Assembly: GCA_963792585.1 (NCBI GenBank)
Contig: CAWBWI010000003.1
Location: 256,001 to 320,000, forward strand
Source: Candidatus Eiseniibacteriota bacterium
GTDB lineage: Bacteria; Eisenbacteria; RBG-16-71-46; CAIMUX01; VGJL01
Direction of reading: 5' to 3'
DNA length: 64,000 nt
How positions within the stretch are numbered: position 1 is the first letter of the stretch; every line of letters starts with the position of its first letter. The position numbers and the translations under genes were made by a program. This document shows positions 47,779 through 53,868 of this stretch, in pieces. The notes below the pieces were generated by a model. The model was not told the DNA's origin and did not search any database. It was given only the letters and a program-made list of their open reading frames with translations.

Positions 47779-47959
47779 TCCGACCTCCCATGGCGAGCAG
47801 GCTGGAACAGAACCTTATATAGTGTACCAGGTTTTTGGATTCCATCCTAGCGGGTCGGGATCGCGAGCCACTCGGGTCTGTTGATCCTCTCCCGGCGGGC
47901 CGATTAGTCTGTCTCGGGGGGCATCGATCTTGCCGTCCCAAATCCGGCGAGGAGGACCA

Positions 47960-48634
47960 TTGGCCGAGACACACGGATCCGGGGAACGGAGACTCTCGCG
48001 TGCCCTACGCCAGCGATTGCCTCATTACTACAGGATGTCCGAGCGAATCAGCCGGGCCGGCAGATCCAAGGTGGGGCTCGTCGAGGTCGCCGAGTCGCTG
48101 GGGATCGAGGAGGCGGAGGCGGTCGCGGATGTCAAGGCGCTCGGGCTGGAACCGGCACCGGACGGCACTCTGGACGTGGAGCAGGTTCACGACATCTCGG
48201 AACACCTCTTGGGGTTGCGCCCCGTTAACACCGCCGCCCTCATCGGCATGGGCCGCCTCGGGACCGCGATCGCGTCCTACGAGGGGTTTGGCCCGTATGG
48301 GATGCGGATCGTGGCTGTCTTCGACTCCGACCCCGAGAAGGTCGGCCGCTTTGTCCGGGGCCACCGGATTCTCCCGGTCGAACAGCTGGAAGACGTACTA
48401 GGGATCTTTCAAATCCGACTCGCCGTGCTGACGGTTCCCCCCGATGATGCCCAGGAGATCACGAACCGCCTGGTCCGGGCAGGCATCCAGGCGATCTGGA
48501 ACTTTGTTCCCATTCACCTGGACGCCCCAGCGCATATCGTCGTGAGAAACGAGAATATTGTCGTAGGGCTGGCCCAGTTATGCCGCGACCTGCGCGAGGC
48601 CAATCTCCGTAGACTCCCGCCCGAGGAGGAGTAG
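47960..48634 (+). CDS. Second Rex-family protein with divergent DNA-binding domain
   Basis: QRLPHYYR, GMGRLG, YEGF, FDSDPEK, AVLTVP, AIWNFVP. TTG 47960 after GAGGAGG. Confidence 0.85.
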   Translation: MAETHGSGERRLSRALRQRLPHYYRMSERISRAGRSKVGLVEVAESLGIEEAEAVADVKALGLEPAPDGTLDVEQVHDISEHLLGLRPVNTAALIGMGRLGTAIASYEGFGPYGMRIVAVFDSDPEKVGRFVRGHRILPVEQLEDVLGIFQIRLAVLTVPPDDAQEITNRLVRAGIQAIWNFVPIHLDAPAHIVVRNENIVVGLAQLCRDLREANLRRLPPEEE

Positions 48635-48783: not shown

Positions 48784-49953
48784 ATGCCCACAAAGGGCTC
48801 CAATATGAAGACTCGCGCGGCGACGGGATCGGTCGCGCTCTTGATCGGTTCGCGAAAAGGGGGTTTCCTCCTGCGGGGTGACCGCAACCGCAAGAGCTGG
48901 AAGATCACGGGACCGTTCTTCCTCGGTTCCCAGGTCCACCACATGGTCCTCGACCCGCGCGACCGGCGCACGCTGCTCATGGCCGCCCGCACCGGGCACC
49001 TCGGACCGACGATTTTCCGTTCGACCGATCTGGGAAAGAAATGGAAGGAGGCATCCAGGCCCCCCGCCTTTAACAAAGCGGCTACCGGCTCGAAGGGAAA
49101 GGTCGTCGACCATGTCTTCTGGCTGACGCCCGGACATTCGAAAGAGCCGGAGGTTTGGTATGCGGGCACGTCACCGCAGGGTCTCTTCCGGTCCGAGGAC
49201 GGCGGCGTCACGTGGGAGGGCATCGACGGATTTAATGAGAACCCGATGCGGTCTGCATGGACCGGAGGCGACCAGGACGGCACGCCGGATGGACCCAAGA
49301 TGCACTCCATTCTGGTCGATCCGCGCGACCCGGCACATTTGTACATTGGGATGTCCGGCGGCGGAGTGTTCGAGAGCCACAACACCGGCCAAGACTGGGC
49401 CCCGTTGAACGCCGGGTGTCTGGCCGACTTTCATCCCGACAAGTATCCTGAGTATGGGCATGATCCTCACTGCGTGAGGCTCCATCCGCTCATGCCGGAC
49501 CGCCTCTATCAGCAGAATCATTGCGGGATCTACAGAATGGAGCGCGCTGAGGGCAAGTGGACGCGCATCGGGGAGGCGATGCCGAAGAAGATCGGTGACA
49601 TCGGCTTCCCAATGGTCCTCCACCCGCGAGATCCGAACACGGTGTGGGTATTCCCGATGGATGGGACGGAGGTGTGGCCCCGCGTAAGCCCCGGCGGCAA
49701 ACCGGCAGCTTACGTGACCCGGAATGCGGGACGAAGCTGGAAGCGGCTCGATGCGGGGCTTCCCCGCGCGCAGGCGTGGTTCACGGTAAAACGGCAAGCA
49801 ATGACCGCGGACGCGCACGATCCGGTCGGTCTGTACTTCGGTACCACGGGTGGGGAGGTCTGGGGATCCAGGAACGAAGGGGTGAAATGGACCCTACTCA
49901 CCGGCCACCTTCCACACATCTACTCCATCGAGGCGGTGGAACTCGGCCGATGA
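48784..49953 (+). CDS. Cytoplasmic BNR/Asp-box beta-propeller protein
   Basis: Asp-boxes RSTDLGKKW, RSEDGGVTW, ESHNTGQDW, TRNAGRSW, SRNEGVKW; no signal peptide. Confidence 0.85.
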   Translation: MPTKGSNMKTRAATGSVALLIGSRKGGFLLRGDRNRKSWKITGPFFLGSQVHHMVLDPRDRRTLLMAARTGHLGPTIFRSTDLGKKWKEASRPPAFNKAATGSKGKVVDHVFWLTPGHSKEPEVWYAGTSPQGLFRSEDGGVTWEGIDGFNENPMRSAWTGGDQDGTPDGPKMHSILVDPRDPAHLYIGMSGGGVFESHNTGQDWAPLNAGCLADFHPDKYPEYGHDPHCVRLHPLMPDRLYQQNHCGIYRMERAEGKWTRIGEAMPKKIGDIGFPMVLHPRDPNTVWVFPMDGTEVWPRVSPGGKPAAYVTRNAGRSWKRLDAGLPRAQAWFTVKRQAMTADAHDPVGLYFGTTGGEVWGSRNEGVKWTLLTGHLPHIYSIEAVELGR

Positions 49954-50210
49954 AGGTCTTCTTGCCGACCCCGCTACGCTCCTACGCGGGCGGCGCGAGC
50001 GTAGTCGACGCCGAGGGCTCCACGATAGGAGCGCTTCTCTCCGATCTCGATCGCCGATTCCCGGGGATTCGCTTTCGGATGATCGATGAGCAGGACCAGA
50101 TCCGTCCCCACATGCGGATCTTCGTCAACGGCAACCAGGAGCTCTCGCTCGATCGAGCGATCACGTCGCATGACGAGATCCAGATTCTGCAGGCGCTGAG
50201 CGGCGGCTGA
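49950..50210 (+). CDS. MoaD/ThiS-family ubiquitin-like protein
   Basis: 86 aa MKVFLPTPLRSY...RIFVNG...IQILQALSGG*; ATGA overlap with the propeller gene. Confidence 0.9.
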   Translation: MKVFLPTPLRSYAGGASVVDAEGSTIGALLSDLDRRFPGIRFRMIDEQDQIRPHMRIFVNGNQELSLDRAITSHDEIQILQALSGG

Positions 50211-50245
50211 TCCCGGGGTGGCGTGCTCCGCGGGGGAATAGACAG

Positions 50246-50276
50246 CGCCCCGTCCGGCCTTCCGCCGGACGGGGCG
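50246..50276. terminator. 13-bp hairpin between convergent genes
   Basis: CGCCCCGTCCGGC-CTTCC-GCCGGACGGGGCG. Confidence 0.6.
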
Positions 50277-50300
50277 TGATCATTCAGCACGATCGGTGGA

Positions 50301-51020
50301 TCAGGACCTGGCAAGGTTCTCCTCAGCGAAGTCCCAGTTGATGAGATTGTCCAGAACCGCAGTGATGTAGTCCTTCCTGCGGTTTTGGTAGTCCAGGTAA
50401 TAGGCGTGCTCCCAGACGTCAATCGCCAGCAGGGGAACGGCGGCCGTGGTGAAGGGGGTGTCCGCATTCGGGGTCTTGATGACCTTGAGCGATCCCTTGT
50501 CCGAGACCAGCCACGCCCACCCGCTGCCGAATTGTGTCAATCCGGCGTCGACGAACTGCTTGCGGAACTCATCGAAGCCGCCGAAGGAAGCTTCGATCCT
50601 CGCGGCGAGCTCGCCGCTCGGTTTGCCGCCCCCCTTCGGGCGCATCGACCGCCAGTAGAATGTGTGATTCCACGTCTGGGCCGCGTTGTTGAAGACGGCT
50701 CTCTTCTCGGGATCCGCGGCGGCGGCCCGCACGATCTCCTCGAGCCTCATGTCCGCCATCGGCGTGCCCTGAATCAGCTCATTCAGCTTATCGAGGTATC
50801 CTTTGTGGTGCTTCCCGTAGTGGAAGCCGATCGTGTTGCTCGAGATCACAGGTGCAAGGGCGTCGTCGGGATAGGGGAGGGGAGGCAGCTCGATCGGAGC
50901 CGCCATCGCCGGCTTCACGAAGGGCGTGAAGCCCGAGACGGCCGCGGCCGCACCTGCGGCCGCGACCCCGATCAAGAAACCCCGCCGAGAGAACGGCCTG
51001 TTCTCGATCGTCTCAGACAT
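50301..51020 (-). CDS. Fe-type superoxide dismutase with Tat signal peptide
   Basis: SRRGFL plus hydrophobic stretch; HYGKHH, FNNAAQTWNH, FGSGWAWL, TPNADTP, DVWEHAYY. Confidence 0.93.
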   Translation of the reverse strand: MSETIENRPFSRRGFLIGVAAAGAAAAVSGFTPFVKPAMAAPIELPPLPYPDDALAPVISSNTIGFHYGKHHKGYLDKLNELIQGTPMADMRLEEIVRAAAADPEKRAVFNNAAQTWNHTFYWRSMRPKGGGKPSGELAARIEASFGGFDEFRKQFVDAGLTQFGSGWAWLVSDKGSLKVIKTPNADTPFTTAAVPLLAIDVWEHAYYLDYQNRRKDYITAVLDNLINWDFAEENLARS

Positions 51021-51030
51021 CAAAGCGCTC

Positions 51031-53868
51031 CTACCACGTTTCCGTCAGTTCATCGATGACCTGGCCGTTTTCGTCATAGGTCACCCTGGAGCCGTGGCCG
51101 TTCTCCCAATTGATTTCCGATTGAATGTGCCACTCGGCCGGCTCACCCGTCCAAACGTACTCCTTGAAGAAACCGGTCTTGCAGTCTTCGGAGACGTGCG
51201 TTTCCGTCTTGGAGGATTCGGGAATGATCCAGGTGACGTCCTGCGAGTTGTCGGTGTTCTTCGCCCAGGTGATCTGCGACGAGAGGGTTCCGGCTTCAGC
51301 CACGTCGCCATCGTAGAAGCTCCAAGTTCCCGACTTGCCGTCTTCGGAGACGATCCAGGTCCAGCTGCTGATGACGGTGGTGGTGTTGTCGTCGTAGAGC
51401 CGGAGCGCGCCGCTCGTGCCGGTTTCATTGTCCATCGTTCCGCGAAGCGCGACCCAATTGGAGTAGTTGGACCCGTCGCAATTGCCATTCAAGGTGAGGG
51501 TCCACTCCCAGCCATCGCCGTTCCGGCAGACCCGGTACACGGCCGTGCAACCTACCTCGTAGTCGTAGGTCCAGGTGTAGCAACCGCCGCCCTCATCCGT
51601 CCAGTCCGCTCCCTGGAGAGGCAAGAGGAACGAATTGGCCACGGAGGCGATGATGGCGGCGAAGTTGAGGTTCAACTGAACGACCTGCTGCGCCGCCAAT
51701 GCGTTGGGGTCGGTGTTGTCGAAATTGACGCAGGTGCTGATGTCAGGAACGGGGAATGCGGGGAGGTTCACCCCTCCGGTAACGGTGAAGGGCGTCGACG
51801 CGCAGTTGTTCGTCTCGTCCCCTTCGGTAACCTCGCCGGCGATATCCGCGCACGCCTCCACGGTGTGGTTGCCGAGGGTCGCGGTTCCGAGGTTGCAGTT
51901 GACGATGACGCTGGAGCCCTCCGGCAGAGAGGAAGTATTGATCTCGGCGCACGTGCTGGCGCCGTCTAGGCGAACACGCGTCTTGCTTCCCCCTGCGAGA
52001 GTGCCTCCGGCGTTCCGGACGGTGACGACGGCCGAGACCGGCTGTCCCTCGGTCGGATTGGGCGGCGTGATGGAGATTTCGTCGATCACGAGATCCGCCT
52101 GGGTGACGACGGCCGTCACGTCCAGGTTCACGGTAAGGCAGTTGTTCGCCTCGCTCGATTCCGTGATGGTGGAACCGGCATCCGCGCACCCCTCGATGGA
52201 GTATGTGCCTGCGTCGAGCGTGCCGAGGGCACAGTCGACGGACAGGGTCTCGCCGGCAGGAATTGTCGCAGTCGCGATGCTCGAGCAACGTGACGTGCCG
52301 TCAACCGATGTCGAGGTGATGCTCGCAGCGGCCGCGCCCGTGCCCTGGTTCCGCACGACAACGTGGGCGGTGACCGGTTCCGCGGATGTCGGCTGGGCGG
52401 GGGTGAAGCTGATCGAGTCGACGATCAGGTCGGGGATGCTCGGCGCGACGACCGTGAGGTCCACGCTCAGGCAGTTGTTGTTCTCGACCGATTCCGTGAT
52501 CGCGGAACCGGCGTCGGCACACGCGTTGATGGCGTGCGTGCCGGCGCTCAGCGTGCCGAGATCACAGTCGACGGAAACACTCTGCCCGACAGGAATCGCC
52601 GCCGTAGCGATGCTCGCGCACTGTGGCGTGCCGTCAATTGAGGTCGACGAGACGCTTGCGGCGGCCGCGCCCGTGCCCTGGTTCTGGACGACAATGTGGG
52701 CCGTGACAGCCTCGCCGCTCGTCGGCTGCGCAGGCGTGAACGTGATCGACGAGATCGTCAAGTCGGGCGTGTCCGGGGGACTGACGGTGAAGTTGGCGGT
52801 GAGACAGTTGTTCGTCTCATTCAACTCGGTCACGGCCGAACCGGCGTCGGCGCAGGCCTCCGCTGTGTGGGCGCCGGTCTCGAAGATCCCGAGTTCGCAG
52901 TCGACGGTAACCGTGCCGCCCGCGGGGACACTCACCGTGGCGATGCTCGAGCACTCCGGAGTCCCATCGACTTCCGTCGACGTGATGGTCGCCTCAGCTG
53001 CTGCGGCACCCAGGTTTCGGACGACGACGTGCGCCGTGACCGCCTCACCGGTTGCCGGCTGCGCGGGTGTGAACGTGACCGACTCGATCGTCAAGTCTGG
53101 CATGTCCGGGGGACTGACTGTGAAGTCGGCGGTGAGGCAGTTGTTCGTCTCGTCCGACTCGGTCACGGTCGTGCCGGCGTCGGCGCATGCGTTCGCCGCG
53201 TGCGATCCCGGCTCCAGGGTCCCGAGTTCGCAGTCGACGGTGACCGTGCCGCCCGCGGGGACGCTCGCCGTGGCAATGCTCGAGCACTCAGGAGACCCAT
53301 CGACCGCCGTCGACGTGACGGTGGCCACGGCCTCGGCAGTGCCTTGGTTCCGGACCGTGACGTGCGCGGTCACGGGATCGTCCGGTCCCGCGGGGTCGGG
53401 GGAGAATGTAATCGATTGTACAAGGAGATCGGGCGTTGGCGGCGCCGCGACGGTTAGGTTCGCGGTGCGGCTATTGTTCGACTCGTCCGATTCGCTGATC
53501 GCGCCGGCGACATCCACGGTCGCTTCGAGTGTGTATGCGCCGGCAGTCTGGCCACCGATGTCGCACGTGACCGTCGCCTGCTGTGTCTTTGCAATAGCGG
53601 GCGTCGCGATGGCAGCGCAGGATGTTGTGCCGTTCACCTTGAGCCTGGTGGCGCAGGCGGCCGCGTCCGCTTCGCCCGTGTTCGCGACGGTGATGGTCAC
53701 CGTGATCGGTTCGTCCGTCTGGGGGCTGGCCGGGCTCCAGGTGATGCTCAGGACGGTCAGGTCCGCCTGGTCAGGTTTGGATGGATTGTTATCGTCTCCA
53801 CAAGACGTCAGGAAGAGGGGCAACGCGAGCATACAGAGGATCGCGAGTCCCCAGGATTTGCGAATCAT
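51031..53868 (-). CDS. Large lipoprotein with six Cys-containing CARDB-like repeats and an unrecognised C-terminal domain
   Basis: Lipobox LTSC; six units of the form xDLxxxxIT/VT...VxNxG...ExxExNN. Confidence 0.85.
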   Translation of the reverse strand: MIRKSWGLAILCMLALPLFLTSCGDDNNPSKPDQADLTVLSITWSPASPQTDEPITVTITVANTGEADAAACATRLKVNGTTSCAAIATPAIAKTQQATVTCDIGGQTAGAYTLEATVDVAGAISESDESNNSRTANLTVAAPPTPDLLVQSITFSPDPAGPDDPVTAHVTVRNQGTAEAVATVTSTAVDGSPECSSIATASVPAGGTVTVDCELGTLEPGSHAANACADAGTTVTESDETNNCLTADFTVSPPDMPDLTIESVTFTPAQPATGEAVTAHVVVRNLGAAAAEATITSTEVDGTPECSSIATVSVPAGGTVTVDCELGIFETGAHTAEACADAGSAVTELNETNNCLTANFTVSPPDTPDLTISSITFTPAQPTSGEAVTAHIVVQNQGTGAAAASVSSTSIDGTPQCASIATAAIPVGQSVSVDCDLGTLSAGTHAINACADAGSAITESVENNNCLSVDLTVVAPSIPDLIVDSISFTPAQPTSAEPVTAHVVVRNQGTGAAAASITSTSVDGTSRCSSIATATIPAGETLSVDCALGTLDAGTYSIEGCADAGSTITESSEANNCLTVNLDVTAVVTQADLVIDEISITPPNPTEGQPVSAVVTVRNAGGTLAGGSKTRVRLDGASTCAEINTSSLPEGSSVIVNCNLGTATLGNHTVEACADIAGEVTEGDETNNCASTPFTVTGGVNLPAFPVPDISTCVNFDNTDPNALAAQQVVQLNLNFAAIIASVANSFLLPLQGADWTDEGGGCYTWTYDYEVGCTAVYRVCRNGDGWEWTLTLNGNCDGSNYSNWVALRGTMDNETGTSGALRLYDDNTTTVISSWTWIVSEDGKSGTWSFYDGDVAEAGTLSSQITWAKNTDNSQDVTWIIPESSKTETHVSEDCKTGFFKEYVWTGEPAEWHIQSEINWENGHGSRVTYDENGQVIDELTETW
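51790..53770 (-). repeat. Intragenic tandem repeat of about 333 bp (6 units)
   Basis: Near-identical blocks CCCGAGTTCGCAGTCGACGGT...GCTCGAGCACTC at 52888 and 53221, offset 333 nt. Confidence 0.85.

Follow-up and report, generated by a model that had tools for sequence, protein, structure and literature searches.

A beta-propeller gene paired with a ubiquitin-like carrier gene encodes a candidate sulfur-transfer system

The known partners of sulfur carriers that end in Gly-Gly (GG), namely MoaE, ThiG, CysM, BexX and TtuA, each define a sulfur-insertion pathway. CysM is a pyridoxal phosphate enzyme and BexX a TIM barrel, and the MoaD-MoaE and ThiS-ThiG pairs recycle their carrier without a protease. 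Here, we analyze a two-gene cassette in a 64,000-nucleotide stretch of DNA from a Candidatus Eiseniibacteriota bacterium (the window; contig C3, 256001-320000), in which the gene of a beta-propeller overlaps that of a small ubiquitin-like protein (Ubl) with a terminal GG. By analogy, the two proteins would act as carrier and acceptor in the way that MoaD-MoaE, ThiS-ThiG and CysO-CysM do. The pair is nevertheless a member of none of them, because the fold of the partner differs and the defining genes are missing from the locus.

Like CysO-CysM-Mec+ with MoeZ in Mycobacterium tuberculosis, and like CysO/BexX (4n6e), the cassette places a small GG carrier beside a putative enzyme, while an activating enzyme (E1) with a rhodanese-like part is encoded elsewhere. 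Unlike in those systems, the partner is a seven-bladed propeller; no JAB protease is encoded in cis, and in roughly half of the genomes none was found. A CysO-CysM-Mec+ locus would hold genes for CysM and JAB, but PALP and JAB matches are missing from the window and do not recur among 218 flanking genes. The cassette shares with MoaD-MoaE and ThiS-ThiG the two-gene carrier/acceptor logic and the terminal GG, but its propeller is related to neither MoaE nor ThiG and its Ubl falls outside the MoaD clade. Urm1-Uba4 and archaeal SAMP1-UbaA are similar in having a SAMP1-like Ubl activated by an E1(-rhodanese); however, the available portions of PMC9574740 and PMC2948915 describe no dedicated propeller partner for them.

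The propeller-Ubl pair in the window and across genomes

The propeller is encoded by a 389-amino-acid (aa) open reading frame (ORF) at 48784..49953 on the plus strand, as a seven-bladed Asp-box (BNR) protein without a signal peptide and homologous to PDB entry 3B7F. The Ubl ORF (86 aa; 49950..50210, plus strand) has the ThiS/MoaD-type beta-grasp fold, is CysO/SAMP1-like and finishes in ALSGG, the codons of its free C-terminal Gly-Gly lying at 50202..50207 (plus strand). The propeller stop and the Ubl start share an ATGA overlap, and the propeller ORF holds the motifs MHSI, GHDPHCV and YQQNHCG. A first-pass annotation of the window had listed these features, from the signal-less Asp-box propeller and its motifs to the LSGG ending of the 86-aa protein, and all of them are seen in the ORFs.

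The pairing of the two genes is far beyond chance. We compared 250 homologous loci (80 close GTDB loci, 61 from whole-genome searches, 80 from metagenomes and 29 from Acidobacteriota), counting a Ubl as paired if no more than about 1 kb separated it from the propeller; Acidobacteriota solos were judged within 1.5 kb. The Ubl is adjacent to the propeller in 229/250 loci: 79 of the 80 close loci are paired and one is cut by a contig end, 57 of the 61 whole-genome-search loci, including the window, are paired (one cut, three solo), 66 of the 80 metagenome loci, which belong to another subfamily, are paired (5 cut, 9 solo), and so are 27 of the 29 Acidobacteriota loci (two solo; 29 of 32 matches were examined). 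Two of the 229 are odd pairs, with the Ubl on the opposite strand in L148 and 990 bp off in L186. The pair is found in both gene orders, and natural Ubl-GG-linker-propeller fusions occur in two unrelated cases (P0155/P0276 and L305). No third gene conserved across lineages was found beside the pair. The closed two-gene unit proposed from the window, for which a cross-phylum comparison of neighborhoods had been suggested, is borne out by this co-conservation. Over 197 pairs, sequence distances between propellers follow those between their Ubls (Spearman 0.68; best of 200 permutations 0.07), a correlation of the kind that shared descent alone produces.

The AlphaFold2 model of the propeller (pLDDT 93.5) matches 3B7F with a root-mean-square deviation of 1.3 A over 367 aligned residues, at 65-66% identity and a Z of 61.1 in the fold search; the next structural match has a Z of 28.4. 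Both the published table for 3B7F and our own model give seven blades, and the S-x-D-x-G-x-x-W (Asp-box) repeats are present. The N-terminus has no hydrophobic signal-like stretch, residues 17-23 forming a propeller strand in the model. The 3B7F protein (YP_299179.1; Reut_B4987 of Ralstonia eutropha JMP134) is of the same family as that of the window. It is a structural-genomics entry, listed as seven-bladed with the function 'Not known' in PMC2716378, whose available part mentions no link to a Ubl. In Cupriavidus homologues, the Ubl lies immediately downstream of the propeller. The family comprises at least 8000 clusters at 90% identity, all 8000 scored candidates falling below E 1e-10, and 595 representatives at 50% identity score below 1e-30. 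Its atlas clusters span Actinomycetota, Chloroflexota, Acidobacteriota and archaea, and no homologues were found in viral contigs or phage genomes. A Ser/Thr kinase domain is in frame with a propeller of the same family in P0157 and L180, and kinase genes flank several of the propeller-Ubl cassettes.

A protein atlas search returned only the propeller's own family, under glycosidase names, and RefSeq calls the homologues 'exo-alpha-sialidase'. If these labels were right, the propeller would be a glycosidase or sialidase and the Ubl a spare MoaD/CysO that lies adjacent by chance; we consider this very improbable. The Asp-box repeats speak for the labels, as do the Pfam/NCBIfam matches, which are all weak or below cut-off, Sortilin-Vps10 excepted, and the GH74 proteins that follow 3B7F in Foldseek. 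However, chance does not explain a Ubl adjacent in 229/250 loci, on either side of the propeller and sometimes fused to it, and sugar-utilization genes are not conserved nearby. The conserved residues assigned to the top face of the propeller are His, Gln and Arg, and an invariant pair of acids is missing. GH33 sialidases use an Arg triad with a Tyr/Glu/Asp catalytic set, and several Arg are conserved in the propeller. The blade count also disagrees: a single seven-bladed propeller of 389 aa without signal peptide matches neither the six blades of GH33 nor the two tandem seven-bladed propellers of GH74 (PMC2716378, available in part). In the Foldseek comparison, the TM normalized by the GH74 target is about 0.34. 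The earlier statement that the propeller is not a secreted glycosidase is thus supported in the form 'not a typical secreted glycosidase'.

The Ubl matches PF02597 at 35 bits, over a cut-off of 22.5. Its best PDB matches are CysO (3dwg_C, E 2e-10) and 4n6e_B, with SAMP1 also close, while its hidden Markov model scores for SAMP1 (41.7 against 60) and Urm1-like proteins (22.1 against 70) stay below cut-off. GG is retained in 191/197 paired Ubls: 165 have a free GG and 26 a GG followed by an unrelated tail, the remainder being cut by contig ends (4) or having lost GG (2). We built a quick tree from 25 dereplicated propeller-linked Ubls, 14 CysO-like and 20 MoaD sequences (92 columns). The 20 MoaD rows split off from the other Ubls on a branch with support 99, and the CysO-like clade is nested among the propeller-linked Ubls, whose monophyly the tree does not settle. 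By its sequence, the Ubl of the window groups with CysO-like carriers, outside the MoaE-linked MoaD clade. The genome of the window (G000, 84% complete) has separate MoaD-MoaE (contig C5) and ThiS-ThiG loci, and therefore this Ubl is a third carrier of its genome.

Conserved residues and a predicted metal site

Residue conservation was counted over 88 loci, comprising 59 whole-genome-search loci, collected without motif bias, and the 29 Acidobacteriota loci. Among the 59, H174, H229 and Q244 are each kept in 59 and H246 and R337 in 58; all five are kept in 29/29 Acidobacteriota loci. Position 227 is always Cys or Asp (Cys 48 and Asp 11 of 59; Cys 20 and Asp 9 of 29). On the plus strand of the window, the invariant His174, a proposed metal ligand at the start of the inner (A) strand 173-178, is encoded at 49303..49305. 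Asp227-Pro-His229 (49462..49470) would supply two further ligands, and Gln244-Asn-His246 (49513..49521), with an invariant Gln and a near-invariant His, is the putative source of the third His ligand. The near-invariant Arg337 (49792..49794) is a candidate anchor for the C-terminal (thio)carboxylate of the Ubl. In 53 diverse representatives, several of them apparently frameshifted, the His residues are kept in 47, 46 and 44 and the two cysteines of the motifs in 14 and 22; the conserved Arg residues in this set are R36, R59, R251, R300 and R337.

The two cysteines, C230 and C247, behave differently. C230 is present in 8/88 loci (4/59 and 4/29) and C247 in 10/88 (7/59 and 3/29), whereas the close subfamily has C230 in 75/80 and C247 in 80/80, the latter count being biased by the search pattern. 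Conservation of the QNHCG and DPHC motifs had been named as a check. H229, H246 and Q244 pass it as near-invariant residues, and C230 and C247 do not, being confined to the close subfamily. The first-pass annotation had made the propeller a dedicated enzyme or receptor of the Ubl acting through a His-Cys centre. On gene adjacency and the fusions, the propeller is likely the dedicated partner of the Ubl, and this half of the proposal is retained; the His-Cys centre, in the form drawn, is not supported.

In the model (DSSP), H174, H229 and F275 stand in a common register at inner-strand starts. H174 and H229 open the inner strands of adjacent blades, position 227 comes just before H229, and H246 belongs to the loop that follows strand two of the blade of H229. 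Judging from strand register, H174, H229, H246 and position 227 would all face the top mouth of the propeller channel. Metal sites typically show such a set of three His with Cys/Asp, in which Cys swaps to Asp. The residues shared by the whole family (three His, Gln, Arg and Cys/Asp227) point to a predicted metal site on the top face rather than to a Cys thioester. A complex prediction with propeller, Ubl and Zn gave ipSAE values of 0.20 and 0.18 against a mark of 0.32, scores that weigh neither way.

A precedent for such a site is PAL, a beta-propeller with Zn on three His that acts on a derivative of the C-terminal glycine of peptides (PMC8358657, available in part). The precedent is one of analogy only, with no homology: PAL is a six-bladed enzyme of the secretory pathway. 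The fold searches returned 3B7F and generic propellers, and PAL, nitrous oxide reductase and GH33 chains are not among the matches listed.

Most other subfamilies carry the pattern C-x-H...C-x-H...Q-x-H, which provides five candidate ligands (C172, H174, C227, H229 and H246), enough for more than one metal. This raises the possibility that the Ubl supplies sulfur for a metal-sulfur cofactor in the propeller or in a client enzyme, the propeller being a recipient or chaperone and not a transferase. The CuZ cluster of nitrous oxide reductase sits in a seven-bladed propeller and is a precedent, and MoaE co-occurs with the propeller. Still, C172 is Lys in the subfamily of the window and Gly in another, and the 218 flanking genes include no conserved gene for metal delivery or for a client enzyme; we rate this explanation as rather improbable.

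Activating enzyme, JAB protease and proposed mechanism

The first-pass annotation reported no ThiF/MoeB E1, MoaE, ThiG, CysM or JAB gene in the window. Our search of the same genome for ThiF/MoeB, MoaE, ThiG, JAB and PALP (CysM-type) agrees, as no match falls inside the window. ThiF/MoeB, MoaE, ThiG and PALP are present elsewhere in the genome, a clear Mec+-type JAB being the exception. The absence of a partner enzyme thus holds in cis but not in trans: contig C6 encodes one MoeB/MoeZ-type E1, whose C-terminal part is rhodanese-like by reading of its sequence. In L285 and L295, an E1 gene lies beside the cassette, divergent from it, and L112 has an E1 fragment at the contig end.

Such an E1 is found in 67/68 propeller genomes of two phyla. 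In the phylum of the window (61 genomes, 36 with the propeller), the E1 occurs in 35/36 propeller genomes vs 5/25 without the propeller, MoaE in 35/36 vs 7/25 and ThiG in 12/36 vs 1/25. In Acidobacteriota (91 genomes, 32 with the propeller), the E1 is present in 32/32 vs 49/59, the propeller-negative genome G237 being counted in this last denominator only.

We propose, at about even chances, that the Ubl receives its thiocarboxylate from the E1 acting in trans, while the propeller serves as a dedicated sulfur-accepting metalloenzyme with a metal on three His and Cys/Asp. By analogy with CysO, MoaD and ThiS, MoeZ would adenylate and thiocarboxylate the Ubl. The Ubl tail would then dock at the top-face mouth of the propeller, with R337 as the candidate anchor, and the metal would bind or polarize the thiocarboxylate, so that the sulfur could pass to a small electrophilic substrate or be released as sulfide. 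The Ubl would return as the free carboxylate, and therefore no JAB would be needed for its recycling.

The distribution of JAB bears on this proposal. At a threshold of E<1e-14, a Mec+-type JAB is found in 37/68 propeller genomes (18/36 in the phylum of the window and 19/32 in Acidobacteriota), six genomes of the former phylum with weaker matches (E 1e-6 to 1e-10) being scored negative. A blocked GG, by tail or fusion, is seen in 6/37 Ubls from JAB-positive genomes vs 0/34 from JAB-negative ones (Fisher p 0.026, with kin not independent and genomes incomplete). Three further tailed Ubls, chosen for being tailed, all come from JAB-positive genomes. Since blocked GG occurs only with JAB, the evidence, of moderate weight, suggests that a free GG is needed and that JAB trims the GG in trans, the propeller not being the trimmer. 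The opposite explanation is that the propeller is a metal-dependent hydrolase cutting after GG in place of JAB/Mec+, to mature or recycle the Ubl. A three-His metal site suits hydrolysis, 26/197 Ubls carry unrelated tails after GG, and the fusions put GG before the propeller. However, trimming by the propeller would let JAB-negative genomes tolerate tails, while the tails and the one fusion in a searchable genome occur only where a Mec+-type JAB is encoded; the hydrolase explanation has a small chance in our view.

Two JAB-bearing arrangements stand apart from the cassette. Among 20 JAB-E1 loci of the window's phylum, 14 (within L238-L256) have a CysO-like Ubl fused in frame, via GG, to the front of the E1, so that the neighboring JAB would be needed for Ubl release. 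In the window's own genome, L083 (C2:98500-102108, minus) has a frame that looks like an E2-like and a JAB-like protein joined, with a divergent gene of the ThiF family after it. The arrangement recalls the mobile E2/E1/JAB modules of ubiquitination type known from bacteria, its JAB match being below cut-off.

Several observations weigh against the sulfur-accepting metalloenzyme. MoaE tracks the propeller nearly as well as the E1 does, so the link between E1 and propeller is confounded by molybdenum cofactor synthesis, and 49/59 propeller-free Acidobacteriota genomes also have the E1. Most loci lack an E1 in cis. The JAB-tail result consists of six events, two from one genome, and counts the six weak-JAB genomes as negative. 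The 218 flanking genes gave no substrate or client pathway. Solo propellers make up 14/250 loci and keep the same residues, and among the plasmids, of which 5 of 61 matching records were examined, three are paired and two are solo with the same residues. The solo-propeller genomes G010, G037 and G039 carry a second, paired copy.

Neighboring genes, literature and significance

A Rex-like repressor gene (47930-48634) lies immediately upstream of the propeller in the same orientation, as it also does in G013 (L091), and may be co-transcribed with the cassette in that family only. No Rex-box was found near the propeller and Ubl genes. Convergent on the cassette is an Fe/Mn superoxide dismutase (SOD) gene with a TAT signal peptide (50301-51023, minus strand), followed at 51031-53868 (minus strand) by the gene of a secreted, lipoprotein-like protein that has six CARDB domains. 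On its 3' side, the cassette is bounded by a 13-bp GC-rich hairpin at 50246..50276 (minus strand), which is strong (z = -3.5 for 50205-50300) and has no U-tract on the plus strand. The hairpin seen in the first pass is thus present, but its T-tail is on the minus strand, and it is therefore most simply, and probably, the terminator of the SOD gene. Contigs of a relative about 94% identical span both genes in four bioreactor metatranscriptomes (4/8 runs), and such contigs show neither transcription nor a shared transcript.

The 218 flanking genes form a very mixed set, in which a few families recur to a modest degree: VOC/PhnB, AHSA1, YCII, DUF1428, DUF899, RibD_C, SnoaL and DinB. A stress or detoxification role could be guessed from these neighbors, though weakly. 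In 27 Casimicrobiaceae-type loci (within L029-L078), the cassette has a Redoxin (Prx5-like) gene on one side and the ATP synthase operon on the other; this is one lineage and therefore one event. Solo propellers with the full His set are carried on Streptomyces and Rhodobacter plasmids (L278, L280), on which replicons no ThiS-family match was found; in Rhodobacter, the propeller gene and egtBD are divergently oriented. A plasmid record of P. aeruginosa (L279:1-7063) has the pair amid genes for YciI, VOC, a thioredoxin-family protein, a sigma factor and YbaK. We take PA1356 to be the gene of this pair in P. aeruginosa. PA1356 is named in passing as biofilm-related in the available part of a transcriptome paper (PMC11538994).

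Control by an ECF42/stress-sigma regulon was considered and rejected as a general rule: the motif TGTCG(A/G)-N16-17-CG(A/T)C is not enriched, occurring upstream of 6/199 loci and in 9/199 controls taken from inside genes. The cassette of the window has only an imperfect match to the ECF42 promoter, and DUF6596 (ECF42 sigma) was not found in its 84% complete genome. ECF42 control may hold locally: L038, L047, L060 and L145 have good motifs, and in L192 and L279 the pair lies close to YciI/VOC genes and a gene for a sigma factor.

Redox genes next to the cassette bring in a Urm1/SAMP-type modifier, in which the activated Ubl would be conjugated to proteins or would persulfidate oxidized Cys, the propeller being the targeting or catalytic (E3-like) partner. 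This appears possible but unlikely. The Ubl scores on the SAMP1 and Urm1-like models, though below their cut-offs, and redox neighbors recur in some lineages: Rex and SOD in the window, the Redoxin-family gene in the 27 related loci, and AhpF/AhpCF. According to the available portion of PMC9574740, Urm1 in its thiocarboxylated form needs no E2/E3 for conjugation and, under oxidative stress, persulfidates peroxiredoxin. Yet the redox neighbors are few independent events amid very mixed flanks, a Mec+-type JAB for reversing conjugates was not found in half of the carrier genomes, and the invariant three-His, Cys/Asp and Arg set suits catalysis better than a pure adaptor. More specifically, and as a doubtful conjecture, the propellers could be a new three-His metal class that partners a bacterial Urm1-like modifier, steering its thiocarboxylate to protein Cys/Lys without E2/E3. 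If so, many bacterial phyla and some archaea would hold a two-gene ubiquitin-like modification or repair cassette masked as 'exo-alpha-sialidase'.

Literature searches on the pair and its context surfaced no description, although supplements (for example of PMC1779556 and PMC2948915), the N-Zinclopedia database or subscription journals may mention it. In the available portions of PMC1779556, PMC2948915, PMC1949818, PMC2716378, PMC3495685 and PMC6180224, and of 10.1101/072470, 10.1101/2020.01.30.927608 and 10.64898/2026.10.18.759936, the pair is not mentioned. The accessible text of the prokaryotic-Ubl surveys PMC1779556 and PMC2948915 contains neither 'propeller' nor 'BNR', and the sole 'propeller' in that of PMC1949818 is a figure abbreviation. 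The pair is real, it is widespread and, as far as these searches show, it is undescribed. Three findings are new here: the three-His and Cys/Asp site that replaces the cysteines, the natural fusions, and the dependence of blocked tails on JAB.

A structure has been solved for the propeller family (3B7F), Cupriavidus and other bacteria that can be cultured carry it, and the key predicted residues, H174, H229, H246, D/C227 and R337, with C230 and C247 excluded, make the sulfur-accepting metalloenzyme testable. If true, this reading would correct the widespread 'sialidase/glycosyl hydrolase' annotation of a very large family. It would also extend the partners of GG sulfur carriers by one more fold and, probably, by metal chemistry of a new kind, and would point to a new sulfur product or modification.

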